DNA of 64,000 nt. Source: Raja brachyura. Its lineage: Eukaryota. The DNA lies in the NCBI GenBank assembly GCA_963514005.1, contig OY740785.1, forward strand, positions 108,066,001 through 108,130,000, read 5' to 3'. Positions 13,250-59,640 of this stretch are shown here, piece by piece (within the stretch, counting starts at the first letter, position 1; the number at the start of each line of letters is the position of its first letter). The notes under the pieces are model-generated. The model saw only the letters and a program-made list of their open reading frames with translations. It was not told the DNA's origin and made no database searches. Made by a program: the position numbers and the translations under genes.

Positions 13250-13452
13250 GTCCAAGAGTAACACAGCAGATAAGGCAGCATCTCTGGAGAAAAAGGATGG
13301 GTGACGTTTCGGGGTTGAGACCCTTCTTCAGACAAGACGGGTCCCAGCCCAAAACATCACCCAATCTTTTTCTCCAGAGATGTTGCCTGACCTGGTGAGT
13401 TACTTTGTGTCTATCTTCCAGATATACCAGCATCTGCAGTTCCTTTCTACAC
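13250..13452. mobile_element. Fold-back Penelope-derived short element with hammerhead core (minus 13303-13331)
   Basis: Inverted arms; minus strand reads CTGAAGAAGGGTCTCAACCCCGAAACGTC. Confidence 0.75.
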
Positions 13453-13499
13453 ATTCCACATCACTTGCTCGGCCTTGCGCCACTCCCATCTCTCTTACG

Positions 13500-14360
13500 A
13501 CACGATACAATACAATACAATAGAACGTTATTGATCCCAGGAGGGAAATTGATCTGGCAACAGCCATAAAAACACAAACTACATGAAACATGAAATTAAA
13601 GTGATGAGTGGAAAGGATTGGGACTGTGCAAGTATTTGGAGGGGGAGGGGATAGTCTACCCCATGACAGAAGGGGGAGGGGTTGTAAAGTTTGATAGCCA
13701 CAGGGAAGATGATATCCTGTGGCGTTCTGTACTGCATCTTGGTGGAACCAGCCCGTTGTTGAAGGTATTCCTCAGGTTGACCACTGTGTCATGGAGGGGG
13801 TGAGCTGTATTGTCTAGGATGCTCCGCAGTTTGAGGAGCATCCTCCCCACCAAGACCACCTCCCACGAGTCCAACTCCGCCCCCAGGACGGAGCTGGCCT
13901 TCCTGACGAGTTTGTTGATCCTATATCCGTCCGCCACCGATTGGTAGAACATCTGCAGCATCTTGCTGCAGACGTTGAAGGAGTGGAGCCTTCTCAAAAG
14001 GTACAGCCGGCTCTGTCCCTTCTTGTTCAGGGCCTCAGCATTCCTGGACCAGTCCAGTTTACTGTCTAGGCACACTACAAGATATCTGTACTCCCTGGTA
14101 AACTGCACACCCACAACATTGATGGAGACAGGAGACAAGGGTGTTCCTCTCCTCCTAAAGTCTGTCACTAACTCCTTGTCGGTGTTGAGCTGCAGATAAT
14201 TCAGCCCACACCACTCAAAAAAGTCATTGGCTACACCTTCTGTATTCAGTTTCCCTCCCCTCACTGATACAGCCCACAATTGCACAGTCATCTGAAAACT
14301 TCTGCAGGTGGCAGGAGCCCGAGTTATATTTGAAGTCCGAGGTGTAGATGGTGAACAGGA
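13500..14360 (-). mobile_element. Rex1/Babar LINE, 5'-truncated
   Basis: CHLQKFSDD, KELVTDFRR, LDSKLDWS, KKGQSRLYLLRRL.SFNVC; (TATTG)n tail at ~13503-13522. Confidence 0.88.
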
Positions 14361-16168
14361 TGTTTTCCAGCTTTCTGCCCTCCCATTCCATCAGTCTGAA
14401 GGATCCCAATTCGAAATGTTGAGTGTCCATTTCCATGCACATACTGTATACTGCCTCACCCACTCTGTTCCTCCACTTCCTTTTCATAGAACTAGAAAAT
14501 GTAACTATGTTTATTTCTAGCCAGATGCTATTTAACCTCAGATTTTTTCAGATATTTTGTTTTTATTTAAGTTATTTAACTTTGATATCAATAATAATTA
14601 TTTCCCACATACACTTGGAATAAAAGAGAAGCATTATGACCCAACAATGCACACTGCCAGTTAACCAGTAACTGTAATTAAAAAACAATTTTGATGTGGA
14701 TTTGTTTTGTACTGTGACTCAACAATGTACTGTACTGCATGACCAGCCTATAAAATGCACCCCTTGTAATGGGTGATCTAGCATTCAATAATAATTTTTA
14801 TTTTCACTCAAATTCTGTGTCTGGCTGCATTAAGTTCTTCTGATAAATGCTGGATTAGTAATTTCAGGCACCTTTGAAACCGATTTGGTCGGAATGCAAT
14901 GTTAGTGAGACTGATTACACTCATATTCACTTACAGCATCAAATTGCTCTAGGAATGGAAAATACAATGAAATGCGTATTATGTCCACTAAATGTTGGAA
15001 GTATAACTGTTTGGATAAATGAAGGCAAACAATGAGAAATGTCAAGGGGTAGCAGGCTTTTTTTTTTACAAATAGAGGATGCCGGGATGCAACTTTAAAG
15101 CCACATGAATCAACAGCAGCCTGATTTTAAGACAGAACAATTTCCACAGTCTGACAGAAAAGAGACATTTATACTCACAGGACATGCATGGACAATTAGT
15201 AGCAGATACGTAAGCTTGCACTTCAGTCTTTCTGTGGTGTGATAAACAAGGCGATTCCCTGGACAGCAGTTAAGACAGCCCTGCTCAGACATCTTTTATG
15301 AGGTAGTTGGTTACCATGTCACTGTAGCTGGCTGTAAATTATGCTAACTATACCACAGCTTTACCCTTTTTTCTGTTTCCAAAATAAGAATCTTCCTTAG
15401 CTTCAAATATGTCAGTCTCAACAGTAGCAGTACAATATTTAATGCTACATATAATACAGCAGATTTAAAAGGTGTATTTTGTAATTGGGTGCCAGTTCCC
15501 TCATGCACTCATAAATTTAAAAAGAAACGATGTATAAAATGACAAGGATGTTTTATATATGCATTCATTTTGTTTATGGTCATGGACGCTGAAATCATTT
15601 ATTTAGATGAGTGATTTCACCCCAAATTAATTCCACTTCTGTGCGGAAAATGCACCTTAACTATACCCACTACCAGCACAGTTTTCTGTGCAGAACAGAG
15701 GCCATTAATTAAAGTGATTCCCAATTAAATGTTGCCATTTGATGCTGAGATGTGGGTTACTAAATTGACCAGTTTGCAGTGAATTTTCAGCAGCAGCGAC
15801 CATAAGTAATCCGGCCTTAGCTAAGGTGTCACGCATCATACGCTGCCATTTTACACTAGCAAAATAGATTTTTTGCCAGTGTTCTATTTTTATTGTGGCT
15901 TACTTTACCAATACCACGAGTTAAAACTATGCTTCGTATGGTTGGTCGAAAAAAGAGGGACGCAAAAGTTCACCTCTTGTTGATAATTTTGGCGCTGATG
16001 CTGTTTATTATGCAAGGAGCTGGAGCTATAAACGGTGAGCAACCTTCAAGGGTCAGTTAACACAAATGGTCACATTCATTAACAAGCATTGTAGTCCAGT
16101 AATAATGAGCACCACCATTTAACATTAATGAATAGCTATTCTGACTAAATTAAATGACAGTAGACTAA

Positions 16169-16754
16169 AGGGCCTGTCCCACCAGCATGCAACTCTATGC
16201 GATGAACGCGATCAAACCGGCAGCGGGGGCCGCGCGTAGGTCGGGTGATCCCCTGTACAGGGCAGTTCCCACCAGCATGCGCCTGCATGCGGCAAGCGCA
16301 ACTAAACCGGCAGCGAGGGCTGCGCAGAGGTTGGGTGAGTGGCGCAACGCGGCGCAAAGCGAGGCGAACTTGAAGCAAGTCCAAGGTAAGTTCGCCAGGA
16401 CTTAGAGGGGTACACAGAGAGGGGCACCGAGACACACACACATACAGGGCCATGGAGCCACACACATAGAGGGTCACGGAGGCACTTACAAATAAGTTCA
16501 CGGAGGCACGATGTCCGGGCAGTGTGTAAATGTCGAGGCGACTGCGAGCCGACAAGCCGTTGCCGCGCGGGATTTTTAGACAGTCGGTTTTTCGGAGCCC
16601 CGCGCGGTGTCGGGACGATCTCGGGATGAACTCCGCACAATTCCGTGCGGCACCGGCGACCGATGTGGGACCGGCCCCGCGACGCCGGACGGCTCAATCG
16701 ACCACGTTAGGTCGCGCTAATCGCGTAGAGTTGCATGCTGGTGGGACAGGCCCT
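16169..16754. mobile_element. PIF/Harbinger-type MITE (586 bp, CpG-rich), TAA TSD
   Basis: TIR AGGGCCTGTCCCACCAGCATGCAACTCTA at both ends; TAA 16166-16168 and 16755-16757; internal second TIR-like copy near 16260. Confidence 0.9.
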
Positions 16755-16794
16755 TAAATCAAGTCTACCCACCGTTCCAACAGCATGTGCAAGA

Positions 16795-21090: not shown

Positions 21091-21259
21091 GAGTGATATT
21101 TCATTCTTAGAGCGATGCATTTTCTCAACCTTTTCCATTTTAAATTCTAAAAGTTAACATTTAGGATAAACTACATTTGTCAGGGAATAACCGTGTTTTT
21201 ATCAGTGGAAGTGCTGTATTGCCACCATTGACGAAAGGATGTAACTACATTTCTAAGGG

Positions 21260-21388
21260 TTAAAGAAGGAACTGCAGATGCTGGAGAATCGAGGGTTACA
21301 CAAAAAGCTGGAGAAACTCAGCGGGTGCAGCAGCATCTAAGGAGCGAAGGAGATAGGCGACGTTTCGGTCCGAGACCCTTCTTCAGAC
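21260..21388 (-). mobile_element. 129-bp young Penelope-derived mini element (hammerhead core + tail) with 12-bp TSD
   Basis: CATTTCTAAGGG at 21248-21259 and 21389-21400; minus strand starts GT-CTGAAGAAGGGTCTCGGACCGAAACGTC. Confidence 0.88.
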
Positions 21389-21950
21389 CATTTCTAAGGG
21401 CCTGTTTCAATTATAATTGTACAGGCAGGGTATTTTCACTGCACTTACACATATGAAAAATCAAGATCACTTATGTCCTGGACTGGTTTAACTTTTCTAA
21501 ATGCGTCACATTACATTTGTTTGAATTAAGTTCCACCTGGCTTTGCTTTGAAAACTTTTCCAGTTGGTCAAGATCCTATTTCAACGTAGTCAACCTTCAC
21601 GGTCCACGATGCCTCAGATTTTGGCGTCATCTGCAAACCTACCTGAAAACCTAGTGGTGTGTTCCACTGTTATTGCAATTTATACCTGTCCAGCTCTACG
21701 TGTAATACCATGATTTTGCTCTGTTGATTCGACCAGCAACATTTATATTTGATGAAATGTTACCAATTACTGGTTATTGGTTGGAATACCACCTCCATTC
21801 TCATCCAAATAATCAATATAGGCGTGATACAGCCCACCACTGATCTCCGCAGCAGAATACTGGTCACATCTTCTTTTATGAAAACTAACTCTCTGGTACA
21901 CTCTCTGCCTCCAAATAGTGCCAACCACCAAGCCAAATTTGTATCGAATT

Positions 21951-22413
21951 GATAGACACAAAGTGCTGGAGTAACTCAGCGGGACAGGCAGCATCTCTGG
22001 ATAGAAGGTATGCATGACGTTTCAAGTTGAGATCCTTCTTCAGACTCCCTCTCCCGCCCATTTCTCTCCCCCCTCCCACCCCCTTTCCCTGCTCTTTCCC
22101 CTTTCACTCCCTCTCCCACCCTCTTTCCCACTCCTGCCCCGTTCCCTCTCTCTCCCACCCCTTTCCCTCCCGCTTCCAAACCCTCCCCTCATGCTCCCAC
22201 CCCCTTTCCTCCCTCTCCCACCACTTTCCCTCCCTCTCCCACCCGCCTCCCTCTCGTACCCCCTTTTCTCCTGCCCCTTTCAGACTGAAGAAGGGTCTCG
22301 ATCCTAAATTTCACCCATTCCTTCTATCCCGAGATGCTGCCTGTTCCGCTGAGTTACTCCAGCATCTTGTGTCTATCTTCAGTGTAAACGAGCACATGCA
22401 GTTCCTTCCTATC
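21951..22413. mobile_element. Fold-back Penelope-derived element with CT-rich spacer
   Basis: Inverted family arms 21951-22045 and 22281-22378 around a polypyrimidine tract, followed by tail. Confidence 0.75.
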
Positions 22414-22429
22414 TAATTGAATAGCATAT

Positions 22430-23975: not shown

Positions 23976-24200
23976 CTGACAGATTCGAATGGATTGATCT
24001 AGTACGGACTTTGTATCTGTGGCATAATCAGGAGATGGCAAGCTAGCTCGGCAAAAGTGTGCTTGGAGCAACAAGTGGGCTTTGGTGTGTGCGCTGTCAA
24101 AAGAATGTGGGCTCACTTCAAGAGGCAGCCGCTTTGCAAGCTCGCTATTTAGCTGGTCTTCGTTGTGTCGGACTGGAAGGTCTGCATATTCTGTAGCTTC
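23976..24200 (-). CDS. ASCC3: ASCC3 internal coding exon (EATEYADLPVRHNEDQLNSELAKRLPLEVSPHSFDSAHTKAHLLLQAHFCRASLPSPDYATDTKSVLDQSIRICQ)
   Basis: Sec63-domain motifs LPVRHNED, HTKAHLLLQAH, DY.TDTK.VLDQ; acceptor ctctcttctgaag|GAA, donor CAG|GTAAG; 225 nt, phase 0/0. Confidence 0.96.
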
Positions 24201-24281: not shown

Positions 24282-24510
24282 TGTGCAGGAAGGAACTGCA
24301 GATGGTGGCTTAAGCCAAAGATAGACATAAAAAGCTGGAGTAACTCAGCGCGCCAGGCAGCGTCTCTGGAAAGAAGGAATGGGTGACGTTTCGGGTCGAG
24401 ACCCTTCTTGAGACTGAAATCTGAGTCTGAAGAAGGTCTCGACCCGAAACGTCACCCATTCCTTCTTTCCAGAGATGCTGCCTGTCCCGCTGTTACTCCA
24501 GCTTTTTGTA
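24282..24510. mobile_element. Fold-back Penelope-derived element with two opposed hammerhead cores
   Basis: Inverted arms ~24328-24412 / 24427-24508; imperfect TSD ATTAACAGCA(G/T)ACA at 24265 and 24514. Confidence 0.8.
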
Positions 24511-25227
24511 TAAATTAACAGCATACATCACAAACTCACAATAAAGCACAATGGATCAGATAATACAATGACCTAGGATGTTTGATGAAAATCTGTTAAG
24601 ATTTAAACTTAATTTATTCCACATTTACCAATATGAAAAGTCTTAAATGCAACAATACCAATTATGTTTTAATCATTTTCACTGGGTGGGTATATATTAA
24701 CAAGGACCACAGTTTTATAATAGTACAGACTGAACATATTTTTATTCGTTCATACATTTTGTTTCCACTGGCTATTTGTAAACAGATTTAAATGCTCATT
24801 TTGTTTGATTAAACAGTATACTCCTAATAACTTAATGATTTAACTTTAATAACACGATAATAATTTATCATCCACCAAATACCCCAGCATTTTGTGTCTA
24901 CGTCACCTTTGTCACCCATTCCTTCTATCTAGAGATGCTGCCTGTCCCGTTGAGTTACTCCAGCATTTTGTGTCGGATGCTTCGGTTTAAACCAGCATCT
25001 TCAGTTCCATCCTACGCATAATAATTTCTCTAACTGATAGATGACCAATGCTTAAGAAAGAACTGCAGATGCTGGAAAAATCAAAAGATGACCAATACTA
25101 AGATTTTTTGTGCATTTTTTCCTATTATACTGTTTTTTAGATTGTTACATATCGCTTTGAAAAATGAGCAATATATTAAACAAATATTGTGTATATATCC
25201 AGAAAGGATAAATACACAATTTAAGTA

Positions 25228-28203: not shown

Positions 28204-29589
28204 ATCATAGAAACATAGAAACATAGAAAATAGGTGCAGGAGTAGGCCATTCGGCCCTTCGAGCCTGCACCGCCATTCAATGTGATCATGGCTGATCATC
28301 CAACTCAGTATCCCGTACCTGCCTTCTCTCCATACCCCCTGATCCCTTTAGCCACAAGTGCCACATCTAACGCCCTCTTAAATATAGCCAATGAACTGGC
28401 CTCAACTACCTTCTGTGGCAGAGAATTCCAGAGACTCACCACTCTCTGTGTAAAGAATGTTTTCCTCATTTCGGTCCTAAAGGAATTCCCCCTTATCCTT
28501 AGACTGTGACCCCTTGTTCTGGACTCCCCCAACATCGGGAACAATCTTCCAGCATCTAGCTTGTCCAACCCCTTAAGAATTTTGTAGGTTTCTATAAGAT
28601 CCCCCCTCAATCTTCTAAATTCCATCGAGTACAAACCGAGTCTATCCAATCTTTCCTCATATGAAAGTCCTGACATCCCAGGAATCAGTCTGGTGAATCT
28701 TCTCTGTACCCCCTCTATGGCAAGGATGTCTTTCCTCAGATTTGGAGACCAAAACTGTACGCAGTACTCCAGGTGTGGCCTCACCAAAACCCTGTACAAC
28801 TGCAGTAGAACCTCCCTGCTCCTATACTCAAATCCTTTCGCTATGAATGCTAACATACCATTTGCTTTCTTCACTGCCTGCTGCACCTGCATGCCTACTT
28901 TCAATGACTGGTGTACCATGACACCCAGGTCTCGTTGCATCTCCCCCTTACCTAATCTGCCACCATTCAGATAATAGTCTACCCTCATGTTTTTGCCACC
29001 AAAGTGGATAACCTCACATTTATCCACATTGTACTGCATCTGCCATGCATCTGCCCATTCACTCAGCCTATCCAAATCACCCTGCAGCCTCCAAGCATCC
29101 TCCTCACACCTAACTATACCCCCCAGCTTGGTATCATCTGCAAATTTGGAGATGTTGCATTGAATTCCCTCGTCCAAATCATTAATATATATTGTAAATA
29201 GCTGGGGTCCCAGCACTGAGCCTTGCGGCACCCCACTAGTCACTGCCTGCCATTCTGAAAAGGACCCGTTTACTCCTACCCTTTGCCTCCTGTCTGCTAG
29301 CCAGTTCTCTATCCACATCAATACTGAACCCCCAATACCGTGTGCTTTAAGTTTGTATGCTAATCTCTTATGCGGGACCTTGTCGAAAGCCTTCTGAAAG
29401 TCTAGATATAACACATCCACTGGTTCTCCCTTATCCACTCTACTAGTTACATCCTCGAAAAATTCTATCAGATTTGTCAGACATGATTTACCTTTCGTAA
29501 ATCCATGCTGACTTTGTCCAATGATTTCACCACTTTCCAAATGCGCTGCTATCCCATCTTTAATAACTGACTCTAGCAGTTTCCCCACT
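28204..29589 (-). mobile_element. Young CR1 LINE, 5'-truncated, open RT reading frame (427 aa)
   Basis: QHGF..YLDFQKAFD..GVPQGSVLGP..FADD; (TTTCTATG)n tail at 28204-28230. Confidence 0.96.
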
Positions 29590-32444
29590 CCCCACTATCA
29601 ATTTTCCTTCTTCCATAAACATAAACTAGCACTGATCCAGAATTTTCATAATAGTTTATTGTCAAATCTAAATACATCTCGCGAACATAAAGAGGAGAAA
29701 AATTGATGTATACTAATGTTAAAGTCATAAGGTAGAGTTCCGTCCGCTAGGATCAAGTGAGTAATGTAATTGTGCAAAGAACAGATGGTTGCAGGTTGGA
29801 TGAATGGTTGTGCTGAGGTATTTAATCTCGCTCTGCCAACTGTTGAACATATCTCAACTTTAGTGATCGCGGGTTAAAGAGTAAAAGGTTAAAAACAAAT
29901 CTGATGTCTTACCACTAATTTCTAACAGGTGATTCCTCCTGAACTATGTTTGGATATACATAAATCTATCTTGAGTACAACTTTCATGTTGATGATGTAG
30001 AAACACCCCAAATGTTATAAACGAGCTGGGTAAGAAGAAACAAATAAAATAGACAGATAAAGAAAGGGAACATTTTTATTTTGGGCAACAGGCTTTGTGA
30101 AAATAGAGCTGAAATTGCTGAAACTTCACATAATATCAAACGTGTGAGGTAGGTAGTGGGAAAACAGCCTTACATTGGAAGACCAAAGAGGATTTAAATC
30201 TAGATAGGTGATGGGTTGGGAATGGGAGTTAGAAAAAAATATATAGATGGCAAGGTCATAAAATAACTTGAAGATAAGAATTTTAAATTCATTGCAGTGG
30301 GATCATTCACATATCACGAGCTGATTGGATGATGGATTAGGAGGGCAAGCTAAGGAAAGGTGAAATTTATGAGGCATGGAGGATGTAGATTGGCAAAGAT
30401 CATGCTGGATAAGGCAAAATAAAGTGTGAATAATGAATGTTATGGTGGTCAGCCTGGATTTGGAGAGGGACATAATGTTAGATCATGACAGATTGGACTA
30501 TGTCATCATGTAATTTCTCACATGCAGAATGTGCAGTTTGCTGAATTCCTGAGGTACTTAAGAAAATGTTTGTACTTTCAAGAAAAGAGAACTGAAAAGG
30601 GGTTAAAAACGGAACAAAATGAATAGACATGCAAATGATTTTATAAAATCAGAAAATTCTGACTAAAATAACAGGAAACTGACTAGAACCCATTTTCATT
30701 AAGAACACAACTGGAAAGAGATTTTGATCTCTGTTGTCTTTTGCAGCTTTTGAAACGTTTCGGCATTCCAATCGAGGAATGCAGTGTCATATTTACTCTG
30801 AACTCTTTGGACGTTTATTTGCACTGTTTCCTTTCTTTGGGACATTTTCCTTTTTAAGACTCTTCAGACTCTCTGCTTTCTATTTACTGAGGTGCTATTG
30901 ACTCATTTTCAAATCTCATCAGTCTTGAAGGAATGCCCTATCTTGGTTATGTTGTCGTTAAGGGCATATTCTTTTGCCTTTTTTTTGCAAATGATAGACT
31001 TCATTTACTTCCTAGTCATTTAAGAACTAATACTTCTCCACTTGAGTTCTAGACTACATTTGTAACTGGGACGTAAGTGAGGTTCATTTTCTTATCTGCA
31101 TCATGCCACTAATTAAAGTAAATTGACAACAGGGACTAAAGCTTTTTGTGTAACAGAGAATGGAATTGAATGGAGTGCCAAAAGGTCGCCATATCCCATT
31201 ATATTCCTATGTGAAGGGCTGGCTTCTATGTCCTGCCCTTGTTTGTTTTGTGCAGTCCAAGCAAATTGCTTACTACTCGTCTGCATCTCTGGTTTGCCCA
31301 GCTGTCTTTGAATAAAGACATCGACTCTCGCAAATGTTAACGGACAGTGATTGACAATCTCGTGATGAACACTGGTTCCAACTCAGCTACTGCTCTTCAA
31401 GTCTGCGGCAGAATGGAGTGAATACGGTGACTGTGCTTCACGCTGACATGAGCAAGCCTCCTGTTCCCGCAGCTCCTTCCATATTGCTCTGCGCCCCTTG
31501 AATGAAAACCTCAATCTGTGCAGCAAATGGCTTACAACAAGGCAACCTTGGAGCCACTCGGCAGGTCATTTTTAGATTAGCCAGACACAGAACAAGACCT
31601 TTTCCATTTTTGAAATCTAATGATTACGGGTTTTGTGTATTAATTATTAATATAAACAAAACAACAGAATACACCAGGTATATTATAATTTAGCATGTTA
31701 TCTCAGAGAAATTAATTTCTTGTTCATGTGCATTTTAAATTAACCATGTCATATTTTCTTCCATTCTTGCCTTTGTTATATAAACAATCAAAACTCCATT
31801 AAGATGTATTAACGAAACAAGGAGACATAATGTAAATCTGAATTGTTGTGGATGGTTAATTTCATATTTTGTTTCGACATTTATTGCTTCATAAGGATTC
31901 CAGTCAGGTTTTGAATTAGCAAATCAGTGTCAGTATTTAGGGCCAATTTTAGTTTCAGCTGAAAAATTTACAAATTTCAAGAGTGCATACATGCTCTCAC
32001 TGTGCAGAAGGGTTAAAGTGTTAACATAATTTGTGCTATTCCACATTGCAATAATGACTATTTTACTGAATATTTCTATGTTAATATCCTCAAATGCCCC
32101 ATACAATATAAAGAAGATGAGAGTACTTTTTTGTGAAATTGTCACCCATTATTATTTTGACCATTTCTTCCGAAAAACCCAGGCATATTCAGGATCTTAA
32201 AGTTGAAGACCAGGATTTTGTTTTAGCTAAAAGGCAAATGCCTATTCAACAGCAGCATTTAAGAATGAGCAGCCATGTGCAGTGCAACAATATAGGTTTT
32301 GCACAAAATCAAGACATGAAGTGACTGTGGTCCAAGCGCAGATTTGCTGATTGACTGAATTAGTATAAATAGCACACCGATGAACAAAAAGGAAATTCGG
32401 GACTGCGCTGCAATATCAAATATAACAATAACATCTCTATAAGG

Positions 32445-32610
32445 TAAGATGCAAAAAACTGGAGTAACTCAGCGGGTCTTACAGCATCTCTGGAGAAAAG
32501 GAATAGGTGATGTTTTGGGTCGAGACCCTTCTTCAGACTGAGAGTAAGGGGAAAGGGAAACGAGAGGTATAGACGGTAACATAGAGAGATATAGAACAAA
32601 TGAATTATGC
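32445..32610 (-). mobile_element. Penelope-derived short element with mutated hammerhead core
   Basis: Minus reads CTGAAGAAGGGTCTCGACCCAAAACATC. Confidence 0.75.
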
Positions 32611-34554: not shown

Positions 34555-34690
34555 CCAGTCTAAAGAAGGATCCTGACCCAAAACATAATCTATCCATGTT
34601 CTCCTAAGATGCTGCCTGACCTACTGAGTCACTCCAAGGCGGTGTGTCCTTTTGTGTATTAACCAGCATTTGCTGTTCATTGTTTCTCCA
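34555..34690 (+). mobile_element. Decayed Penelope-derived short element
   Basis: gtctaaagaaggatcctgacccaaaac..agatgctgcctgacc..accagcatttgc. Confidence 0.6.
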
Positions 34691-36189: not shown

Positions 36190-36460
36190 AATAGAGTTGC
36201 TGCCTTACAGCATCAGGGACCAGGGTTCTATGATGACTATGGGTGCTGTTTGTAGGGAGTTTGTACGTTCTACACATGACTGCATGGGTTTTCTCTGATT
36301 TCCTCCCAAACGCCAAAGAACTACAGGTTTGTAGGTTAATTGGCTTTGGTAAAGATTGTAAATTATCCCGAGTGTTAAGGATAGTGCTGGTTTACGGGGG
36401 ATCACTGGTCGGTGCGGTCTCGGTGGGCAAAGGGCCTGTTTCTGCGCTGTACCTCTCAAC
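36190..36460 (+). mobile_element. HE1-like tRNA-derived SINE
   Basis: tagagttgctgccttacagc..gggttc head and conserved body; tail resumes at 37381 after the Vingi insertion. Confidence 0.8.
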
Positions 36461-36461
36461 T

Positions 36462-37372: not shown

Positions 37373-37879
37373 CTCTCAACTGAACTAATACTACAACAAT
37401 TGTTTCCAGCAGGTATGAAAATTTTTATTTTTTAATCTGGGAAATCAAAATTTTGGGCCATTTTGCCCAGTAACAAAAACATTTTTTTATTTTTGATTAA
37501 TATTGTACAACGAATAATTTATTTTCTAATGTCTGGAATATGATTGTATTTCTAAGCCTATAGTCAAATCCCTTGGAAGATATGGTTGAAAGTTAGGAGA
37601 GTAAAATCAAAGGCTCTGTGCCAAATGTGACTGAATGAAAAGAATAGCTCTCGGCAAGTTCAACACAGGAAGTTGGGTCCTATTAGAAACAAAATTATTA
37701 GTTCTGAAAGATTCAGAAGATCAAGTTAAGACATAAACATCTGTAATATGTTTTAAATATTAGTTTGATAATTATGCTCTTTCTTTCCTCTTTTTCTTAC
37801 GCTGAGAAATTTTCAATGCAACTAACCATTAAGCCAGCTTGAATAACATCACCACTGCCAAATGCAGAGAGAGCCTGAA

Positions 37880-39084: not shown

Positions 39085-39555
39085 TATAAGGAACTGCAGG
39101 TGCTGGTTTACAAATCAAGACAAAGTGCTGGAGTAACTCAGCGGGTTAGGCAGCATCTCTGGAAAACATGGGTCGGTGACGTTTCGGGTCGGGACGATTA
39201 TGGGGAGAAGGCAGGAGAATGGGGTTTGGAAGGAGTGATAGATCAGCCATGATTGAATGAAGGAGTAGACTTGATGGACCGAATGGCCTATTATCACATG
39301 ATCTTAAGACTGATTGTGGGTGGGGGAGCAAGAAAGCTGGAAGAGAGGAGGGGCAGAACAAAGCCTTGTGGGTAATAAGTTGATACAGATGCTGGGGGGG
39401 GGGGTGGGGGGGGGGGGGTGGGGGGGGGGGGGGTGGTTGATAGCAGATGGTGGACAAAGGCCAAAGATGATGTTTCGGGTTCCAACCCGAACCATCACCT
39501 ACCCATGTTCTCCAGAGATGCTGCCTGACCCGCTGAGTTACTCCAGCACTGTGTG
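39085..39555. mobile_element. Fold-back Penelope-derived element with nested CR1 tail (~39197-39300)
   Basis: Tail and arm at 39085-39195, complementary arm at ~39495-39552. Confidence 0.7.
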
Positions 39556-41823
39556 TAGGATTGTTTAGTTATTGCCTTAATAATGTACAAGATGAATGAG
39601 AATGCTACCAATGGCTTTGGTTATTTTTGCATGGAATCAAGGCATCTTGCATATTGAAGCAGTGTGTTCAATCAATTCAATAACTCATTACCTGACAACA
39701 TAACCAAGCATATAACAACATCATGGCCCTAATATTTAAGGAGGGGGCTGCAGCAGCTGGGAAACCACTAATGAAAGTAAGTATGGAAGTGTGCCAAAAT
39801 TAACAAAATTGAACTAATCTCCATGGAAAAAAGTAAAAAAAAAAGGACGTGCTTTCTTCAGTTTGTGGTATGATTTGCTATTAGGTGTAATTCTATTGTT
39901 CTTATTTAAATGCATTTAACCTTCTGGACCTAGACACTATACATATACCATGTCATCTCCTGTTCATGTTTCTCTTTTATTTTTGTTATTCCACTTGGCG
40001 AAATTATAATACCCACTTCCTTGTTTTTAATGACTTAGTTACAACAAGGTTAACATCCCTTGCCTGGTGTGTCGATTTAAAGAGATCCTGCTCTCAAGAT
40101 GGAGCTATTGTGACTAACACATCTTGACAGATGTAATTGATCTTCACTGTATTAGTTGTGGCATTGGAGAAACTGGCTGCAGTGTGCATTTTCATTGCTT
40201 GAATCGGCTTGAAACTTTTTTTTGTAATCCTCGTGAATTCGCTTTGTTTTAAAACCTAATACAAGTACCAAATTTGTGAAGGAAAATAAATGTTTAAATA
40301 TCTCAAAATGTAAGATGGGTACCAATTATTTGTTGTTTGGAATTTTCAGATGCAAGTATGTTCACAATTGCAGTGAACATACACCCTGGCAGGATTTTTA
40401 AATGCAAAAAAATTGAAAAAGTGCAAACCAAGTTCATAATCCCATTAGCTTTAACTAATATCGACAGTCAAATCGACTGGAACAAAGCCACAATTTGATA
40501 TTTTTATGATTAGGTAACCTACTCTCCACATTAAGAAGATAAAGAGCTGGGGAAAGTCTTTAACACATAGAAAGTATGAGAAGTGATCTTAAAATTATTA
40601 GTAACAACTAAGTTCCAAAATTCCTGATTGCTGAAACGGAGTTTGCAAAAATACAAACAGTTATTCTGCAAAACACACACCAAACAAGCCACATAAAATA
40701 ATGTTAACTGGCTGAAATGTTCCCGAGACTGATCAGATTGTCACTTTATTGGCCTAAAAATCTTAAAGAAAATTCTAACCATTCGGTATTTTCATTATTT
40801 CTCACCTCCAAATTGTTAAATATTCGCTAGAACACAATAACACAGTTATGCAAGATATTAAGGTAAATACAATTTTTTTTAAAGTGTTTTATATTTGTTA
40901 CAAAATTCTGCATGTAATTTCTAAAAATGTTAGAATACAAAATGTTAATACAATAACATTCATAACATGAATTAACTTAATTTATCAATTTGTCAGCTGA
41001 CGTTAGCTATGGTCAAAAGGTGCTGGTGCTTGAAATGAAAACATCCTATTCACTGCCAGAATCTTTCTGAGAGCTATTGGAAGTAGAAGTTGTCATCTTA
41101 TCCAAGCTTTTGTTACTTTAAAAACCTTAAATCCAAGATTTTGATCTGTTCAGCAGAACGCTACTTAATAACAAAATTTCCACACCAGAAAAAAATTGCA
41201 TTGATAGATTTCATACGACAACTCAAATATCATGTTGCTATTTACAGATACAAAGAATCTTATGATATTGGAACCACTAAAATATTAAGAGTTTTACCTC
41301 TAGAGTGGGTATACGGGTAATTCTTACACCTATATCAATATGGTAAGTTAATGAGAAATTTGGACCAGGGGGTCAGAGTCAAACAGCTCAATATCCTCAT
41401 TAAATCCTGAGGGGGTTTCAAGTTGCACATTCACCACCCATTTTGAAGTGGAAAATACCTTTTGCTGATGGTTTTATTGATGACTGGGGTCAGAAGTTTG
41501 ACTGAGCAAGGCTACTGTGCAAAGAGCAGCAAGAGTTCAGCGGATGGAGAGGGTGAGAACAGGTCACATGAACAAACATTTGGCTAAAGTGACAAGGTGG
41601 ATGCAAACCATTCCTTTAAGCTTAAGGTCACAGTTGAAAATAATATAGTGTATCTTGACAAAAGCATTAAAGACTGTTGTGGATTAGATGGGTTTTAAAT
41701 TTAATGAAGACAAAGGTAAAAAAACAAGAATATTTTGAGAAATTGAGCATAGTCAACTAACAAAACAGGACATTAACTGTTGCCATATTGCTATATCGCT
41801 CAAAAGTGTAAGCTTTGCTAAAG

Positions 41824-41955
41824 AGGTCTGAAGAGCGGTCTCGACTCGAAACGTCACCTATTCCTTTTCTACAGAGATGCTGTCTGACTCGCTGAGTTAC
41901 TCCAGCTTTTGTGTCTATCTTCAGTTTAAACCAGCATCTGCAGTTCCTTCCTGAG
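41824..41955 (+). mobile_element. Penelope-derived mini element beginning at a hammerhead core (41828-41855)
   Basis: AGGT-CTGAAGA-GCGGTCTCGACTC-GAAACGTC-ACCT then family body and tail; TTGCTAA at 41815 and 41958. Confidence 0.8.
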
Positions 41956-42667
41956 CATTGCTAAGTTTGTTTTATTAGAATTCAACCAAGGGTTTTTACA
42001 AAGCTACATGCTTCAAAGTATAGAATTCTGATAAATGTCCTCCCCAGGTTTCGCTGCTGAGAACAGTTTGGAAACCGAACTGTTCGCAAGTCGGAAATGC
42101 AGCTGCGTACAAGAGTTGCAACACGGTAGAACACTGCTGCAGCTCTGCAGCAGCCGGCAAATCCATGCCGCCGGTCCCCCCAAATGCTGGTTCATGCGGA
42201 CTGGCACTATCTAAGTCAGGCATTCATAAACTAGGGAGGACCTGCGTTTAGTATTCACAAACAAATTCTTTACACAGCTGCATTTTTGAAATTGTGTTCT
42301 GGGAATCAAAGTGCTAAATAAACACAAAACTGATAGCTGTAATATTACCGAGAAGGTGAACAGCAGGTGACCCACAAGCTGGCAAGTCAGAATTGTTCAG
42401 TTAATTCCACCACATTAGATTTATTTATCCGAGTCAGATCAAACAGACAAGCATCAAACAATAGCTGTACTATTTCTCACTGAGAGGTGCAGTATTAATG
42501 GGAAAACCTCTCATGCAGATTCTAAATATCAAAGTAACAAGTTTTATAGGCTTAATAAATGGCTACTATTATTTAAGGATGGAACACTTTGGTGCCGTAA
42601 AGATTTGACCTGCAGCAACTCATTAAGACCATGTATCCTTCTTTGCAAGAACTTGTTAACTATCTTG

Positions 42668-43256
42668 GGTTACACAAAAAGCTGGAGAAACTCAGCGGGT
42701 GCAGCAGCATCTAAGGAGCGAAGGAGATAGGCGACGTTTCGGGTCGAGACCCTTCTTCAGACTGGTCAGGGATCAGGGAAACGAGAGATATAAACAGTGA
42801 TGTGGAGAGATAAGGAACAATGAGTGAAAGATATGCAAAAAAGTATTGGTGATAAAGGAAGCAGGCCATTGTAAGCTGTTTGTGGTGTGAAAATGAGAAG
42901 CTAGTGCGACTGGAGGGGGGGGGGGGGAGATGGAGAAGGAATGTCATGGCCAGAGGGCTGAGGGAGAGGTGGGGGGGAGGCAGTCTGGGTTAACAGAATT
43001 GAGAAAATTCAATGTTTAAGCCCAGAGGATGCAGACTCCCCAAGCGGAATATGAGGTGCTGTTCCTCCAACTTGCGGTGTTGATCACTCTGGCCGTGGAG
43101 GAGGCCCAGGACCGAGAGGTCGGATACAGAGTGGGAGGGGGAGTTGAAGTGCTGAGCCACCGGGAGGTCGGGTTGGTTATTGCGGACCGAGCGGAGGTGT
43201 TCGGCGAAACGATCGCCCAGCCTACGCTTGGTCTCACCGATGTAGATCAGCTGGCA
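42668..43256 (-). mobile_element. Young Penelope-like element 3' end: open GIY-YIG C-terminus (42990-43256), UTR, hammerhead core
   Basis: Manual translation CQLIYIGETKRRLGDRFAEHLRSVRNNQPDLPVAQHFNSPSHSVSDLSVLGLLHGQSDQHRKLEEQHLIFRLGSLHPLGLNIEFSQFC*. Confidence 0.92.
42733..42760 (-). ncRNA. Minimal type I hammerhead ribozyme core (Penelope-type), sense to ASCC3 pre-mRNA
   Basis: CUGAAGA-A-GGGU(CUCG)ACCC-GAAA-CG-UC; all conserved core nucleotides present, palindromic ACGU stem III; stem I weak; activity untested. Confidence 0.7.
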
Positions 43257-43448
43257 TCAGCTGGAACGGCCTGGAGGCGGGCTAATTTCAGGTCCTTGGT
43301 GGAGGTAAGATGGGACAGGAATTGCTGATTGAAGCGGTGGATCTTCCGTTAACAATCTTGTTGTACAATACTGGCCACTGTCCAGGTGCATAGATATGAA
43401 AGGTTTAGAGGGATAGGAGCCAAATAAGGGCAAATGCAATATAACAAA

Positions 43449-43572
43449 AAGGAACTGCAGATGTTGGCTTATACCAAAGATAGACACAAAATGCTGGAGT
43501 AACTCAGCGAATCATGCTGCATCTCTGAGGAAAATCGATAGGCAATGTTTTAGGTCGGGAACCTTCTTCAGG
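43449..43572 (-). mobile_element. Decayed Penelope-derived short element
   Basis: ggaactgcagatg..tagacacaaaatgctggagtaactcagc..ccttcttcag. Confidence 0.7.
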
Positions 43573-43734
43573 CAAATGTAACTGGCTCAGCTAGATAGAC
43601 ATGGATGAGTTGGGACAAAGGGCATGTGTTGTCGTGCTGCATAGTTCTATGATTCAGTGACAGCAAATTACAGCTTTCGAAGAGCTACTGACTGGAGCTA
43701 CACAAAATATGGTTCCATTGCAATTTTGCTGTGA

Positions 43735-47755: not shown

Positions 47756-50325
47756 GACCTCCTGTTAGGAAATGAGACGGGACAGGTGGCGGAGGTATGC
47801 GTTGGGGAGCACTTCGGGTCCAGTGATCACAATACCATTAGTTTCAAATATAATTATGGAGAAGGACAGAACTGGGCCTAGGGTTGAGATTTTTGATTGG
47901 AGAAAGGCTAACTTTAACGAGATGCGAGATGATTTAAAAGGAGTGAACTGGGACATTTTGTTTTATGGGAAAGATGTAGAGGAGAAATGGAGGACATTTA
48001 AAGGGGAAATTTTAAGAGTACAGAATCTTTATGTTCCTGTTCGGTTGAAAGGAACCAGTAAAAATTGGAAAGAGCCCTGGTTTTCAAGGGAAATTGGACA
48101 TCTTGTTCGGAAAAAGAGGGAGATCTACAATAATTATAGGCAGCATGAAGTAAATGAGGTGCTTGAGGAGTATAAGGAATGTAGAAAGAATCTTAAGAAA
48201 GAAATTAAAAAAGCTAAAAGAAGATATGGGGGTTACACAAAATGCTGGAGAAACTCAGCGGGTGCAGCAGCATCTAAGGAGCGAAGGAGATAGGCGACGT
48301 TTCGGGTCGAGACCTTGAGTCTGAAGAAGGGTCTCGACCCGAAACGTCGCCTATCTCCTTCGCTCCTTAGATGCTGCTGCACCCGCTGAGTTTCTCCAGC
48401 ATTTTGTGTAACCCTCGATTCTCCAGCATCTGCAGTTCCTTCTTTAACTAAAAGAAGATATGATGTTGCTTTGGCAAGTAAGGTGAAAGTAAATCCAAAG
48501 GGTTTCTACAGCTATATTAATAGCAAAAGGATAACAAGGGATAAAATTGGTCCATTGGAGAGACTGAATGGACAGCTATCTGCAGAGCCAAAAGAGATGG
48601 GGGAGATATTGAACAATTTATTTTCTTCGGTATTCACCAAGGAAAAGGATATTGAATTATGTGAGGTAAGGGAAACTAGTAGAGTAGCTATGGATACTAT
48701 GAGTTTGAAAGTAAAAGAAGTACTGACACTTTTGAAAAATATAAAAGTGGATAAGTCTCCAGGTCCTGACAGGATATTCCCTAGGACATTGAGAGAAGTT
48801 AGTGTAGAAATAGCCGCGGCTATGACTGAAATTTTTCAAATGTCATTAGAAACGGGAATAGTCCCCGAGGATTGGCTTACTGCGCATGTTGTTCCATTGT
48901 TTAAAAAGGGTTCTAAAAGTAAACCTAGCAATTATAGACCGGTTAGTTTGACTTCAGTGGTGGGCAAATTAATGGAAAAGATACTTAGAGATAATATATA
49001 TAAGTATCTGGATAAACAGGGTCTAATTAGGAACAGTCAACATGGATTTATGCCTGGAAGGTCATGTTTGACTAATCTTCTTGAATTTTTTGAAGAGGTT
49101 ACTAGGGAAATTGACGAGGGTAAAGCAGTGGATGTTGTCTATATGGACTTCAGTAAGGCCTTTGACAAGGTTCCTCATGGAAGGTTGGTTAAGAAGGTTC
49201 AACTGTTGGGTATAAATGCAGGAATAGCAAGATGGATTCAACAGTGGCTGAATGGGATAAGCCAGAGGGTAATGGTGGATGGCTGCTTGTCGGGTTGGAG
49301 GCAGGTGACTAGTGGGGTGCCTCAGGGATCTGTGTTGGGTCCTTTGTTGTTTGTCATGTACATCAATGATCTGGATGAAGGGGTGGTAAATTGGATTAGT
49401 AAGTATGCAGATGATACCAAGATAGGGGGTGTTGTGGATAATGAAGAGGATTTCCAAAGTCTACAGAGTGATTTAGGCCAGTTGGAAAAATGGGCTGAAA
49501 GATGGCAGATGGAGTTTAATGCTGATAAATGTGAGGTGCTATACCTTGGCAGGACAAATCAAAATAGGACGTACATGGTAAACGGTAGGGAATTGAAGAA
49601 TACAGTTGAACAGAGGGATCTGGGAATAACCATGCATAGTTCCTTGAAGGTGGAATCTCATATAGATAGGGTGGTAAAGAAAGCTTTTGGTATGCTAGCC
49701 TTTATAAATCAGAGCATTGAGTATAGAAGCTGGGATGTAATGTTAACATTGTACAAGGCATTGGTGAGACCAAATCTGGAGTATGGTGTACAATTTTGGT
49801 CGCCCAATTATAGGAAGGATGTCAACAAAATAGAGAGGGTATAGAGGAGATTTACTAGAATGTTGCCTGGGTTTCAACAGCTAAGTTACAGAGATAGGTT
49901 GAATAAGTTAGGTCTTTATTCTCTGGAGCACAGAAGGTTAAGGGGGGGACTTGATAGAGGTCTTTAAAATGATGAGAGGGATAGACAGAGTTGATGTGGA
50001 CAAGCTTTTCCCTTTGAGAATAGGGAAGATTCAAACAAGAGGACATGACTTTAGAATTAAGGGACAGAGGTTTAGGGGTAACATGAGGGGGAACTTCTTT
50101 ACTCAGAGAGTGGTAGCGGTGTGGAATGAGCTTCCAGTGGAAGTGGTGGCGGCAGGTTCGTTGGTATCATTTAAAAATAAATTGAATAGGCATATGGATG
50201 AGAAGGGTATGGAGGGTTATGGTATGAGTGCAGGCAGGTGGGACTAAGGGAAAAAAGTTGTTCGGCACGGACTTGAAGGGCCGAGATGGCCTGTTTCCGT
50301 GCTGTAATTGTTATATGGTTATTAT
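47756..50325 (+). mobile_element. CR1 LINE ORF2 (end of APE domain through RT and C-terminus), few disablements
   Basis: HFGSSDHN, PWF, KSPGPD, NYRPVSLTS, QHGF, YMDFSKAFD, YADD; 3' tail ttatatggttattat. Confidence 0.95.
48229..48447 (+). mobile_element. Young fold-back Penelope-derived element: 85-bp perfect inverted repeat, hammerhead core 48321-48348, 33-nt tail, 15-bp TSD
   Basis: CTAAAAGAAGATATG at 48214-48228 and 48448-48462; arms 48230-48314 / 48330-48414; removal restores CR1 frame KAKRRYDVALASK. Confidence 0.93.
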
Positions 50326-57628: not shown

Positions 57629-57679
57629 AAATCTTTAACTATGCAATTTGGAAGCATATTTGATTTATTTCTATCAGGA

Positions 57680-58083
57680 CTGAGGACATAATATACCGAT
57701 TAAAAACTTCTCCCGCCCGAGATGCGGGGTTGAAAATTACCTGCAGCGGGGGCCTTACATGGACCGACGCGGCTTTAATGGCCGTGGGACTTGCTAGTGC
57801 CCGCCGGGGGCTCTAACATCAAGACCTGGAGCGCGGCCTTGCATCGAATAGCCGCGGGACTTATTTACCATCGCCCGACAGTGCCTTTGACTCTGACATC
57901 GGGAGGAGAATTGGGAGTGCAGGGGAGAGATAAGACTCTGCCTTCCATCACAGTGATGAGGATGTGTGTGTAAATTGTGTTGTGTCTTGGTTCTTTTCTT
58001 GTTTGTATCACTGCAGAAACTAAATTTCGTTTGAACCTCAATGAGGTTCAAATGACAATAAACGGTATTGTATTGTATTGTAT
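57680..58083 (+). mobile_element. CpG-rich retroposon with ATGACAATAAA-(TATTG)n tail
   Basis: tttcgtttgaacctcaatgaggttcaaatgacaataaa hairpin-plus-tail and (TATTG)n as in the Rex1 at 13500. Confidence 0.6.
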
Positions 58084-58214
58084 TAAAAGGCAATTTGTAT
58101 TTCACAGTCTATTCTTTTTGAACAATTCCTATGGATGAGGAAGAGCCTGTTTTCAAATTCCAACAAATGGAATAAAATTGCAATAAGTTTGGGTTTCCAC
58201 CAGTTAGAACTCAC

Positions 58215-58349
58215 CGTTAGAACTGACAGCAAGTCCTCCACATGGCAATCTGCATTCATTTTCTTCTTGAACATGCTCACTGTCGGGTGTTTCAGATAAT
58301 AGTAAGAGGCTATCCGGCCTAAATCCAGTGACTGGAGGCTACGATTGTC
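58215..58349 (-). CDS. ASCC3: ASCC3 internal coding exon (DNRSLQSLDLGRIASYYYLKHPTVSMFKKKMNADCHVEDLLSVLT)
   Basis: GRIASYYYLKH motif of Ski2-like/Brr2-type helicases; acceptor cttgcag|GAC, donor ACG|GTGAGT; 135 nt, phase 0/0. Confidence 0.96.
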
Positions 58350-58973
58350 CTGCAAGATAATTGTGAGTTAATAGAAAAATAAATTAAAATGTAAAAGTAC
58401 TTTATATTTTTCTGAATTTTAGACCATAAGATGTACTATCAAAATTAGGCCATTTAGTCCACTGAGACTACTCAGCCATTCAATCACGGCTGATCTATCA
58501 TTTCCTCTCAACCCCATTCTCCTGCCTTCTCCCTGTAACCTTTGATGCATATTTTCTGAATTTTGCTGTTAAATTTTACAGTAAGTGCATTTGCCCGCAT
58601 TAGGAGAGTATCCTTCTGTGCCTTGCCTATGTAGGAGTCCATCTGAATATCTGTTTAACATAGTAATGGTTATCTCATTCCACCGCCTATTCGTGTTCCA
58701 GATATCAGCCACTCTCTGTGTAAAAGAGAAAGTTAGCATGCAGGTATAACAAGTAGAACGCTGACTTGTATTGAAAGGACGATGGAGTACTAAATTAGGG
58801 AAGTCTTGTCACAACAAAGGGCGGGGTGGGAGATTGCAACCTTCACGTGGTCCGGCTTGTTTCAACGAATACAATCAACTTGGCGTGCACAATCAAATAA
58901 GATCAAATAGGACAAATTGTCCTACAACTTTAGGCTGTGCACGCCATACGCAAGAAGAAGAAGACAACAAAGA

Positions 58974-59640
58974 GCGGCACGGTGACGCAGCGGTAGAGTT
59001 GCTGCTTTACAACACTCGGGGTTCGATCACCACTACGGGTGCTGTCGGTACGGAGTTTGCACGTTCTCCGCATGACCGGGTGGGTTTTATCCAAGATCGG
59101 TTTCCTCCCACACTCCAAAGACGTACAGGAGTGAGCAACACCGCAAGTTGGAGGAACAGCACCTCATATTCCACTTGGGGAGTCTGCATCCTCTGGGCTT
59201 AAACATTGAATTTTCTCAATTCTGTTAACCCAGACTGCCTCCTCTCCCTCCCCACCTCTCCCTCAGCCCTCGGGCCCTGACATTCCTTCTCCATCTTCCC
59301 CCCCCCCCCACCCAAGTCGCACTAGCTTCTCATTTTCACACTACAAACAGCTTACAATGGCCTGTTTCCTTTATCATCAATAATTTTTTGCATATCTTTC
59401 ATTCATTGTTCTTTATCTCTCCACATCACTGTCTATATCTCTCGTTTCCCTGATCCCTGACCAGTCTGAAGAAGTGTCTCGACCCGAAATGTCGCCTATC
59501 TCCTTCGCTCCTTAGATGCTGCTGCACCCGCTGAGTTTCTCCAGATTTTTGTGTAACCACAGGTTTGTAAGCTCTTGGGCTTGATATAGGTGTAAATTGT
59601 CCCCAGCATGGGTAGGATAGTGTTAGTGTGCGATAGTGCT
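58974..59640 (+). mobile_element. HE1-like tRNA SINE interrupted by a Penelope insertion
   Basis: gcggcacggtgacgcagcggtagagttgc..ggttcgatc head; body resumes at 59559. Confidence 0.8.
59130..59558 (+). mobile_element. Young Penelope-like element 3' end with hammerhead core (59466-59493), 5-bp TSD
   Basis: Near-identical to 42668-43085 (reverse complement); QHRKLEEQHLIFHLGSLHPLGLNIEFSQFC*; ACAGG at 59125-59129 and 59559-59563. Confidence 0.9.

Follow-up and report, generated by a model that had tools for sequence, protein, structure and literature searches.

Hammerhead motifs in ASCC3 introns of Raja brachyura as pseudo-LTR pieces of a Neptune-type Penelope-like element, probably copied from uncut RNA

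Described hammerhead elements and the motif in the window

Minimal hammerhead ribozymes (min-HHRs) with a type I core are known from the pseudo-LTRs of metazoan Penelope-like elements, for which Cervera and De la Pena (2014, PMC4209133) describe an extra base between positions 9 and 10.1, a G10.1-C11.1 pair, a palindromic stem III, copies that are mostly solo or in opposite-strand pairs, and an occurrence in fish Neptune elements. The motif studied here is alike in all these respects. The role of the hammerhead in endonuclease-bearing (EN+) Penelope-like elements has been called unclear (Craig et al. 2021, PMC8557442). The Poseidon element PAc of Anolis (Frangieh et al. 2024, PMC11167929) probably shares with the present element two internal starts of reverse transcription that define its tail, an uncut RNA template and a cut site without copy ends. 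Note, however, that PAc belongs to a different clade, that its ORF begins inside the hammerhead while the start codon here lies at +164, and that both reverse transcription starts here would lie in the 5' leader. A type I hammerhead and an origin in Penelope-like pseudo-LTRs are also features of non-LTR retrozymes (bioRxiv 10.64898/2026.07.22.740005), with one chondrichthyan case reported, but their units, each with a hammerhead, are arrayed head-to-tail, whereas the copies here are solo or head-to-head. A retrozyme is recognised by two or more successive tandem units that each carry a complete hammerhead, and the copies in the window (the whole 64-kb stretch analysed) were solo, truncated or head-to-head. 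A search of main texts in the open-access literature yielded no account of this family from cartilaginous fishes.

The sequence-only reading had listed 10 main and 6 decayed copies of a 28-nt motif in ASCC3 introns, and all were found, each within 1 nt and all 16 intronic. The window held seven matches at ≤3 mismatches against none in 100 dinucleotide shuffles; the copies at 13303 (1-nt insertion) and 24427 (1-nt deletion) score 7 mismatches when aligned ungapped because of their indels. A family HMM raised the total to 28 copies, 12 sense and 16 antisense to ASCC3. Exact matches numbered 50,608 genome-wide, and stretches sampled evenly over the genome, 600 kb in all, contained 151 motifs at ≤7 mismatches (1 per 4.0 kb; none in 200 kb after shuffling), bearing out the proposed very high copy number of roughly one motif per 4 kb. 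The window has this same average density, so ASCC3 is not enriched and a link to that gene is not supported. Extrapolation from 21 strict matches in the 600 kb gives ~95,000 strict motifs genome-wide, compared with ~4,000 in coelacanth and ~9,000 in Xenopus (PMC4209133), although the descriptors differ. Head-to-head hairpins account for about half of the copies (66 such pairs among 268 copies), and the 600-kb sample also held 19 same-strand neighbour pairs within 300 bp. A strict descriptor found no other hammerhead family in the 600 kb.

The earlier parse of the motif as a hammerhead was correct in both catalytic boxes, the extra base, stem II, the palindromic stem III and the cleavage triplet, and its assignment to a minimal type I ribozyme of a Penelope-like retroelement is supported. 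The full set of min-HHR elements was intact in copies 42733 and 48321. Stem I was 2 bp in 16 of the 21 strict matches, short of the 4-5 bp of a min-HHR; since a 2-bp helix I is described for a D. virilis variant (PMC4209133), the motif was filed as that reduced form, and cis cleavage would, as had been cautioned, probably be weak. An Rfam search, proposed earlier as a check, gave no hammerhead match at gathering score in the window and, in 42400-43700, none to any hammerhead family even at E ≤ 10, and the fold z of the leader was only -1.6.

The parent element and its insertions

The motifs could be traced to a unit of ~4 kb with a single frame of 1,192 aa (most relatives matched have ~650-1,100 aa) that carries reverse transcriptase and GIY-YIG endonuclease. 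The whole protein matched RVT_1 at residues 676-844 (E 2e-4) and, at 1096-1128, GIY-YIG (E 2e-3), neither reaching its Pfam cut-off, and two partial frames of the element gave no Pfam match. There were 1,354 relatives at E ≤ 1e-30 and, among the matches listed, most carry RVT_1; the matches included no named reference element. The endonuclease has a CCHH zinc motif whose two Cys lie between GIY and YIG (residues 1097-1112), with two His downstream, and the RT and endonuclease domains are joined by a CX2-5CxxC linker at residues 1059-1067, which is a feature of the Neptune clade common to Nematis (PMC8557442). Judged by motifs, of which the linker would fit Nematis too, the element is a putative Neptune-type EN+ Penelope-like element. 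It differs from the Neptune/Nematis-type elements described (PMC8557442) in its long Pro/Ser-rich N terminus and in the predominance of very short, leader-only insertions. Units of 3,965 bp occur as a tandem array in the genome, along with a partial tandem; the distance from stop codon to motif is 233 nt and, in tandem copies, the motif precedes the start codon by 163 nt; copies terminate at two fixed 3' points, +94 and +127. The pseudo-LTRs, the tandem and inverted arrangements and the 30-40 bp tail of EN+ Penelope-like elements were all found. The motif had been taken as a retroposon system of its own, but it sits in the pseudo-LTR of an ordinary protein-coding element, as already published (PMC4209133), and is not new. 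The host exons and the copies in the window are as follows.

ASCC3 exons near 60799-60674, 58358-58200, 24212-23976 and 661-509, minus strand: host context
58215..58349, minus: ASCC3 exon match, host context
42667..43348, minus (sense to ASCC3): young 5'-truncated Penelope-like copy with the end of the GIY-YIG domain (43268-42993), 3' UTR, intact motif (42733-42760) and 3' end at +94
59129..59558, plus (antisense to ASCC3): young 5'-truncated copy of 430 bp with the last 33 codons and 3' UTR; motif 59466-59493 with stems II and III broken
21248..21400, minus: solo short copy, -2 to +127 (21388-21260), with a stem II mismatch
48214..48462, both strands: head-to-head pair in a single insertion; minus short arm ends at +94, plus long arm runs from -3 to +127
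13243..13439, both strands: head-to-head pair including motif 13303, predicted -92 kcal/mol hairpin
24290..24527, both strands: head-to-head pair of 24385 (minus, box I changed) and 24426 (plus, 1-nt deletion), ~80 nt from an ASCC3 exon
21939..22400, both strands: head-to-head pair of 22016 (minus) and 22285 (plus), spacer ~235 nt
8373..8540, both strands: old head-to-head pair of 8399 (minus) and 8428 (plus)
39104..39561, both strands: old head-to-head pair, both arms beginning within the motif; absent from the earlier list
32443..32605, minus: older-subfamily copy continuing into the upstream pseudo-LTR, with changes in box II and stem III
41826..41950, plus: older solo short copy beginning at -2; stem II broken
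43455..43573, minus: old short copy on the strand of 42733, 811 nt upstream of it
5493..6190, plus: old copy with a GIY-YIG fragment (64-68% identity) and a decayed motif at 6086
34557..34670, plus: old decayed copy (family HMM)
63807..63912, plus: old decayed copy (family HMM)

The copy at 42667..43348 matched residues 1101-1192 at 96% (tblastn) and the full unit at 98% over 605 nt (blastn), and its motif has no mismatches. Copy 21388-21260 is directly flanked by 12-bp target-site duplications (21400-21389 and 21259-21248). The pair at 48214..48462, which interrupts a LINE reading frame, has an intact plus-strand motif (48321-48348) and a 15-bp duplication (48214-48228 and 48448-48462).

Relatives at ~45-55% protein identity retain the hammerhead fold with strong covariation. 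For 14 aligned motifs the covariation score was 0.68 against 0.18 when shuffled (0 of 500 shuffles reached it) and ≤0.09 in slid controls, with rows picked by a descriptor that requires stem II but not stem I. Seven of eight pairs had changed on both sides, box spacing varied from 12 to 17 nt, and it was the pairing and not the letters that was kept. Stem I was 3-5 bp in 14 of 16 matches from relatives, compared with 2 bp here. The five sites that differ between subfamily consensuses are all fold-compatible (two in loop II, two U-A to U-G changes and one cleavage nucleotide). In single copies, conservation of the core was 0.95 against 0.83-0.88 for the tail (179 of 266 rows, filtered on motif identity), which is not proof of selection on the core, because the rows were motif-filtered, the core is A-rich and blocks of the tail are equally invariant. 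One row (L208) of alignment A2 was out of register and left gaps on one side. The ribozyme fold appears to be under selection in the clade, yet is predicted to be mostly off in this family.

Where copies begin

The 5' ends of young copies accumulate just ahead of the core, a difference from the published min-HHRs (PMC4209133). Genome-wide, 6,969 ends were counted 2-3 nt upstream of the catalytic core for the youngest subfamily (2,615 at -3 and 4,354 at -2), often with an added G; three consecutive upstream mismatches were required, and the counts were compared with 45,393 tail matches using anchors unequal in length and place. No peak was seen at the cut site in this subfamily (158 ends, against 160 at control position +32), and only ~12 of 30 young cut-site loci, judged by eye, were simple truncations. 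At 98 loci without box II in register, the number of true 5' ends stayed level across +25 to +36 (of 66, 6 fell at +29 and 11 at +31). A tail-anchored sample gave 39 of 66 copies starting at -7 to +1 (~5 of them another subfamily running on upstream), 11 running on and two starting at +29. The older subfamily had ~225 true ends at +29 and ~159 at +32, counted with unequal anchors, and there may be a small excess of 5' ends at the cut site. A raw older-subfamily count of 520 there was discarded as inflated, since 17 of 30 loci retain the motif upstream, many of them with 12 nt lost between a pair of 4-nt repeats. A control at +26 (359 matches) was likewise left out, as it mostly registers point changes at +24.

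Where a target duplication cleanly bounds the insertion, the final extra base ahead of -2/-3 was G in 8 of 11 cases (p 0.003), and in 5 of the 6 with a single added base. This sample is small and some of its loci had been selected with exclusion letters; of 138 simple insertions, 112 were set aside with no clean duplication by the rule used. Inverted junctions and self-duplications account for much of the raw excess of G (16 of 30 and 20 of 30). In L1, capping is marked by an extra G (PMC11702581), and the bases upstream of the motif fit the initiator consensus BBCA+1BW (PMC5580651). Contigs of two related organisms gave the same depth step and loose ends at -2 to -4 and +127, which have no bearing on transcription or cleavage.

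Taken together, the integrated DNA was likely copied from RNA that begins just ahead of the core and is uncut. The interpretation we favour, with a probability of roughly three in four, is that the motifs are pseudo-LTR pieces of a young, abundant Neptune-type element whose hammerhead is likely the first 31 nt of a capped RNA and is likely copied uncut. Reverse transcription would begin inside the element RNA at +94 or +127, as in the anole Poseidon. A start in the 3' pseudo-LTR would give long or 5'-truncated copies, such as 42667-43348 and 59129-59558, and a start in the 5' leader would give copies of 95-130 bp with target duplications, such as 21260-21388, often doubled head-to-head. These short copies would be run-off products of an uncut, capped RNA start. 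The ribozyme would be mostly off, its stem I held to 2 bp by an RNA start at that point, with need of a dimer or a protein and a core predicted to pair with the tail. Uncut RNA was the main substrate in the anole study (PMC11167929).

A fuller version leans only slightly to our side of even. In it, the transcript start inside stem I would have shrunk that stem to 2 bp, and the two leader sites of reverse transcription would make ~700,000 stubs, solo or as hairpins, a SINE-like product made in cis that records a capped, uncut template; the ribozyme, if it acts, would decap or disarm its own RNA as a self-limiting switch held off by tail pairing.

Competing explanations and the host gene

It could be that the hammerhead, aided by a protein or as a dimer, cuts tandem read-through RNA, and that unit-length RNA is circularised and copied across the re-ligated junction, leaving no end at the cut site (the model of PMC4209133). 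This is possible, if doubtful: the fold covaries in distant relatives, the subfamily differences all respect it, tandem arrays are present and the anole hammerhead cleaves once protein is added (PMC11167929), but the -2/-3 peak and added G go unexplained, stem I is shorter than in relatives and a cut in the 3' pseudo-LTR would separate the reverse transcription starts from the ORF. Cutting and circularisation can coexist with the copying of uncut RNA. A different reading of the -2/-3 boundary itself, as a 3' splice acceptor, an endonuclease cut or a microhomology hot spot, is unlikely. In every subfamily seen, run-on copies do have a pyrimidine run and AG ahead of the motif, the start codon is overlapped by a donor-like site, and a Penelope intron of D. 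virilis ends at helix I (PMC4209133, PMC2377424); against this, the leader end was joined at -1 in 0 of 347 copies, clean copies adjoin their target duplication with no common first exon, and the whole sense strand is pyrimidine-rich.

It is very unlikely that the motif is retained chiefly at the DNA level, serving as an internal polymerase II core promoter with an initiator and MTE/DPE-like positions rather than as a ribozyme. With A(-3) as +1, positions +18 to +22 match the revised MTE consensus CGANC (PMC5580651), and Penelope possesses an internal promoter (PMC2377424). The promoter-only reading appears weakened by the subfamily that alters the A of the MTE match and keeps the base pair, and by the relatives, with their conserved pairing and variable letters and spacing. 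It is highly improbable, too, that the short copies have master genes of their own and form a distinct non-autonomous family, a retrozyme or SINE. Short units do predominate, the same-strand neighbour pairs would suit it, and contigs of related organisms have some head-to-tail joints with 20-36 nt between. However, short copies are 98-99% identical to the leader of the coding element and have its subfamily changes and 3' ends, their junctions are individual, and the 600-kb sample contained no short-unit arrays.

The strong form of the sequence-only reading, in which ASCC3 pre-mRNA is cleaved by its sense copies, monomeric or dimeric, with an effect on the gene, has very little to commend it and is the kind of claim we would hardly credit. 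Among the sense cores it named (13303, 21359 and 42733), 42733 is intact and without an inverted partner, and stem III could pair in trans with identical copies in other transcripts; 13303 is buried in its predicted hairpin and 21359 has a G-A mismatch in stem II, so that neither stands. Copies 24385, 32509 and 43545 have catalytic-box changes, and with box II and stem III broken the copy at 43455..43573 offers 42733 no dimer partner. In its context, stem II of 42733 is predicted to be unformed (p ~0.02); predicted stem II pairing is ≤0.02 in six of seven sense copies, the seventh having a broken box II, and the 4-bp stem III duplex is worth only about -3 kcal/mol by prediction. In the published cases, monomers were uncut and dimers weakly cut (PMC4209133). 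The average motif density and the 12 sense to 16 antisense copies also argue against an effect on ASCC3. The exon at 23976..24200 (second Sec63 domain) matches human ASCC3 chain 8alz_B (E 2.4e-35), and an assembled contig encodes a protein that joins the four window exons in order. Ribozyme action within ASCC3 is unlikely because stem I is 2 bp, about half the copies are head-to-head and 42733 is the sole sense copy both intact and unpaired; the intronic copies are likely inert passengers.

The motif class and its pseudo-LTR home are already published, and the added value is the copy-end result. Head-to-head pairs would place many hairpins of ~100 bp in intronic RNA. The copy-end reading agrees with the sole biochemical study, made in another clade (PMC11167929), and tens of thousands of near-identical young insertions amount to an in-genome test of the role of the hammerhead.

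Carrier element, copy number and host gene

The motif positions of the sequence-only reading were reproduced, with all 16 listed places recovered to within 1 nt. Seven motif copies were present in the window at ≤3 mismatches, with none in 100 shuffles, and a family profile detected 28 copies (12 minus strand, 16 plus strand). The host gene had been correctly named as ASCC3, on the minus strand, as judged by exon matches and by four window exons mapping in the correct order. The exon at 23976-24200 matched human ASCC3 with an E value of 2.4e-35, compared with only 1e-13 for SNRNP200, and its top named match was Callorhinchus milii (87%), indicating a cartilaginous fish.

The very high copy number that had been proposed, roughly one motif per 4 kb, also held. 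The 2.70-Gb genome contained 50,608 exact matches (reversed control, 0), and sixty 10-kb stretches chosen at round coordinates contained 151 motifs at ≤7 mismatches in 600 kb (shuffled 200 kb, 0). This corresponds to 1 per 4.0 kb, or ~680,000 by extrapolation, and there is therefore no enrichment in ASCC3.

Loci around exact matches carried reverse transcriptase (RT) and GIY-YIG frames on the same strand, ending ~240 nt upstream of the motif, and the attribution to a minimal hammerhead of Penelope-like type is upheld, the motif lying in the pseudo-LTR of an RT/GIY-YIG element. Full copies had a single 1,192-aa frame with its start codon at +164 (+1 being C3 of the hammerhead, where the 28-nt motif begins) and 233 nt between stop codon and motif, and tandem units measured 3,965 bp each. 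The protein gave weak RVT_1 and GIY-YIG matches in Pfam, and it contained both a CX4CxxC linker and two cysteines within GIY-YIG; a linker of this type and cysteines inside GIY-YIG are marks of Neptune/Nematis-type elements in the available text of PMC8557442. The identity of the element, its copy classes and its end positions are established. Two 5'-truncated copies were assigned in the window by sequence match to the element:

42667-43348, 5'-truncated copy including the end of the 1,192-aa frame
59129-59558, 5'-truncated copy including the end of the 1,192-aa frame

Elsewhere in the genome, loci L043-L044 (G000:C18:46.36-46.38 Mb) formed a head-to-tail array of four 3,965-bp units and five motifs, with near-identical 1,033-codon open stretches.

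The ASCC3 introns in the window were filled by several LINE subfamilies, which we take to be CR1-type. Two LINE 3' ends, at 28206-28802 (-) and 62183-62779 (+), were 99% identical and inverted, 33 kb apart, and pieces of other non-LTR retroelement families lay at 36237-37424 and 13659-14390. A young LINE reading frame at 47769-49841 (+), with a 484-codon RT stretch, was broken by a head-to-head Penelope pair (48229-48447) with a 15-bp duplication; the pair is therefore younger than the LINE copy.

Retention of the hammerhead fold

Minimal hammerheads are known from Penelope-like pseudo-LTRs, fish Neptune elements among them, and are described in the available text of PMC4209133 as having an extra base and a palindromic stem III, with monomers that do not cut and dimers that cut weakly. 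Relatives of the element (80 metagenome loci, ~40-60% protein identity) were searched with a descriptor that required stem II, not stem I, giving 16 matches in 13 loci, 14 of them sense, compared with 0-1 per shuffle (five shuffles). When 11 relatives' motifs were aligned with three copies from the Raja brachyura genome, 7 of 8 base pairs showed changes on both sides, all four stem I pairs covaried, and the covariation score was 0.68 versus 0.18 shuffled and ≤0.09 slid. Subfamily majorities within the genome differed in the motif only at +13 and +14, in the loop, at +17 and +29, both U-A to U-G, and at +28. The covarying pairs in relatives and this confinement of subfamily changes argue that the clade keeps the hammerhead fold. 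Stem I was 3-5 bp in 14/16 matches from relatives and, as had been noted for most copies, 2 bp in the Raja brachyura family (16/21 strict matches).

Copy ends and a proposed mechanism

The 3' ends of copies clustered near +94 and +127, a spacing that gives a 33-nt tail like that of the two internal RT start sites of an anole element (PMC11167929, available text). Young-copy 5' ends, counted genome-wide where the three upstream bases were all unlike the element, numbered 2,615 at -3 and 4,354 at -2. At the predicted cleavage site, between +28 and +29, there were 158, versus 160 at the +32 control (tail matches, 45,393). A genome search gave 956 copies without box II in register; 98 were examined, and 30 retaining the motif and two tandem duplications were set aside. 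No peak at +29 was found among the 66 true ends that remained (+25 to +36: 4, 2, 5, 1, 6, 2, 11, 8, 5, 2, 7 and 13, the last bin taking in ends up to the anchor). The 5'-end counts at +29 rule out a strong cleavage footprint. In an older subfamily, raw ends numbered 520 at +29 versus 191 at +32, of which 13/30 and 25/30 checked loci, respectively, were true ends; the corrected figures, ~225 versus 159 with unequal anchors, leave room for a small excess at the cleavage site.

Simple insertions bearing a 9-18 bp duplication and ≤3 added bases made up 26 of the 312 copies inspected, and 17 of them began at -2 or -3. The last added base was G in 8/11 simple insertions with such starts; an extra G of that kind has been tied to the mRNA cap in L1 (PMC11702581, available text), and the bases around -3 match the vertebrate initiator consensus as excerpted from PMC5580651. 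Contigs of two related organisms had loose ends at -2 to -4 and +127 and a roughly thousand-fold depth step over -4 to +127 versus the ORF start; these contigs may not derive from RNA.

Sequence runs X1 and X4, aligned to locus L046 (7588-7719), are contigs of related organisms joining +127 to -4 via 20-36 other bases, and may represent short units arranged head to tail in the genomes concerned. The opening bases of the motif, from a few up to a dozen, were repeated at many 5' junctions (loci L150, L156, L169 and L174), a pattern resembling backward slippage of the copying enzyme at the RNA end. Fifteen of 98 loci (L331, L333, L345 and 12 others; ~150 genome-wide) held a short copy that begins near +8 and has a target duplication of its own, nested in another dispersed repeat of at least 760 bp and 97% identity, and the two had multiplied together.

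These data suggest a scheme in which transcription would start at -3/-2, making the hammerhead the first 31 nt of the element RNA and, because of that start, leaving stem I without room. The 5' box of the leader is predicted to pair with the tail end (z -1.6), which would hold the ribozyme off, and uncut RNA would be the template for reverse transcription. The element protein would prime at +94 or +127, in the leader to give stubs of 95-130 bp and in the 3' pseudo-LTR to give longer copies.

Read-through RNA may also be cleaved and then circularised, a route that would leave no end at +29. The -2/-3 boundary is less likely to be a splice acceptor: L046 has a splice-donor-like site at +158 to +168, overlapping the start codon, but none of 347 copies joins that site to the motif. 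A role for the motif as promoter only is weakened by the relatives' motifs, which count against it.

Improbable cleavage within ASCC3, and significance

Hammerhead cleavage in the ASCC3 introns probably does not occur, judging by copy sequence and predicted folding. The 600-kb sample held 268 copies, with 66 neighbour pairs lying head-to-head within 300 bp, and therefore 132 copies in inverted pairs. Three sense cores had been proposed as transcribed ribozymes, at 13303, 21359 and 42733; the first belongs to a head-to-head pair (predicted -92 kcal/mol) and the second has a stem II mismatch, leaving 42733 as the only copy in the window that is at once intact, sense and unpaired. In the copy nearest to it on the same strand, stem III is broken, and copies 24385, 32509 and 43544 have altered catalytic boxes. 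Predicted stem II pairing probability, in 400-nt context, was ≤0.02 in 6/7 sense copies.

A search of open-access literature, as far as its listings and passages of one hit show, returned no paper treating this element family in a shark or skate. Both the motif and its carrier have already been published, as has the arrangement of inverted copies, and to these the copy-end statistics are a useful, testable addition.
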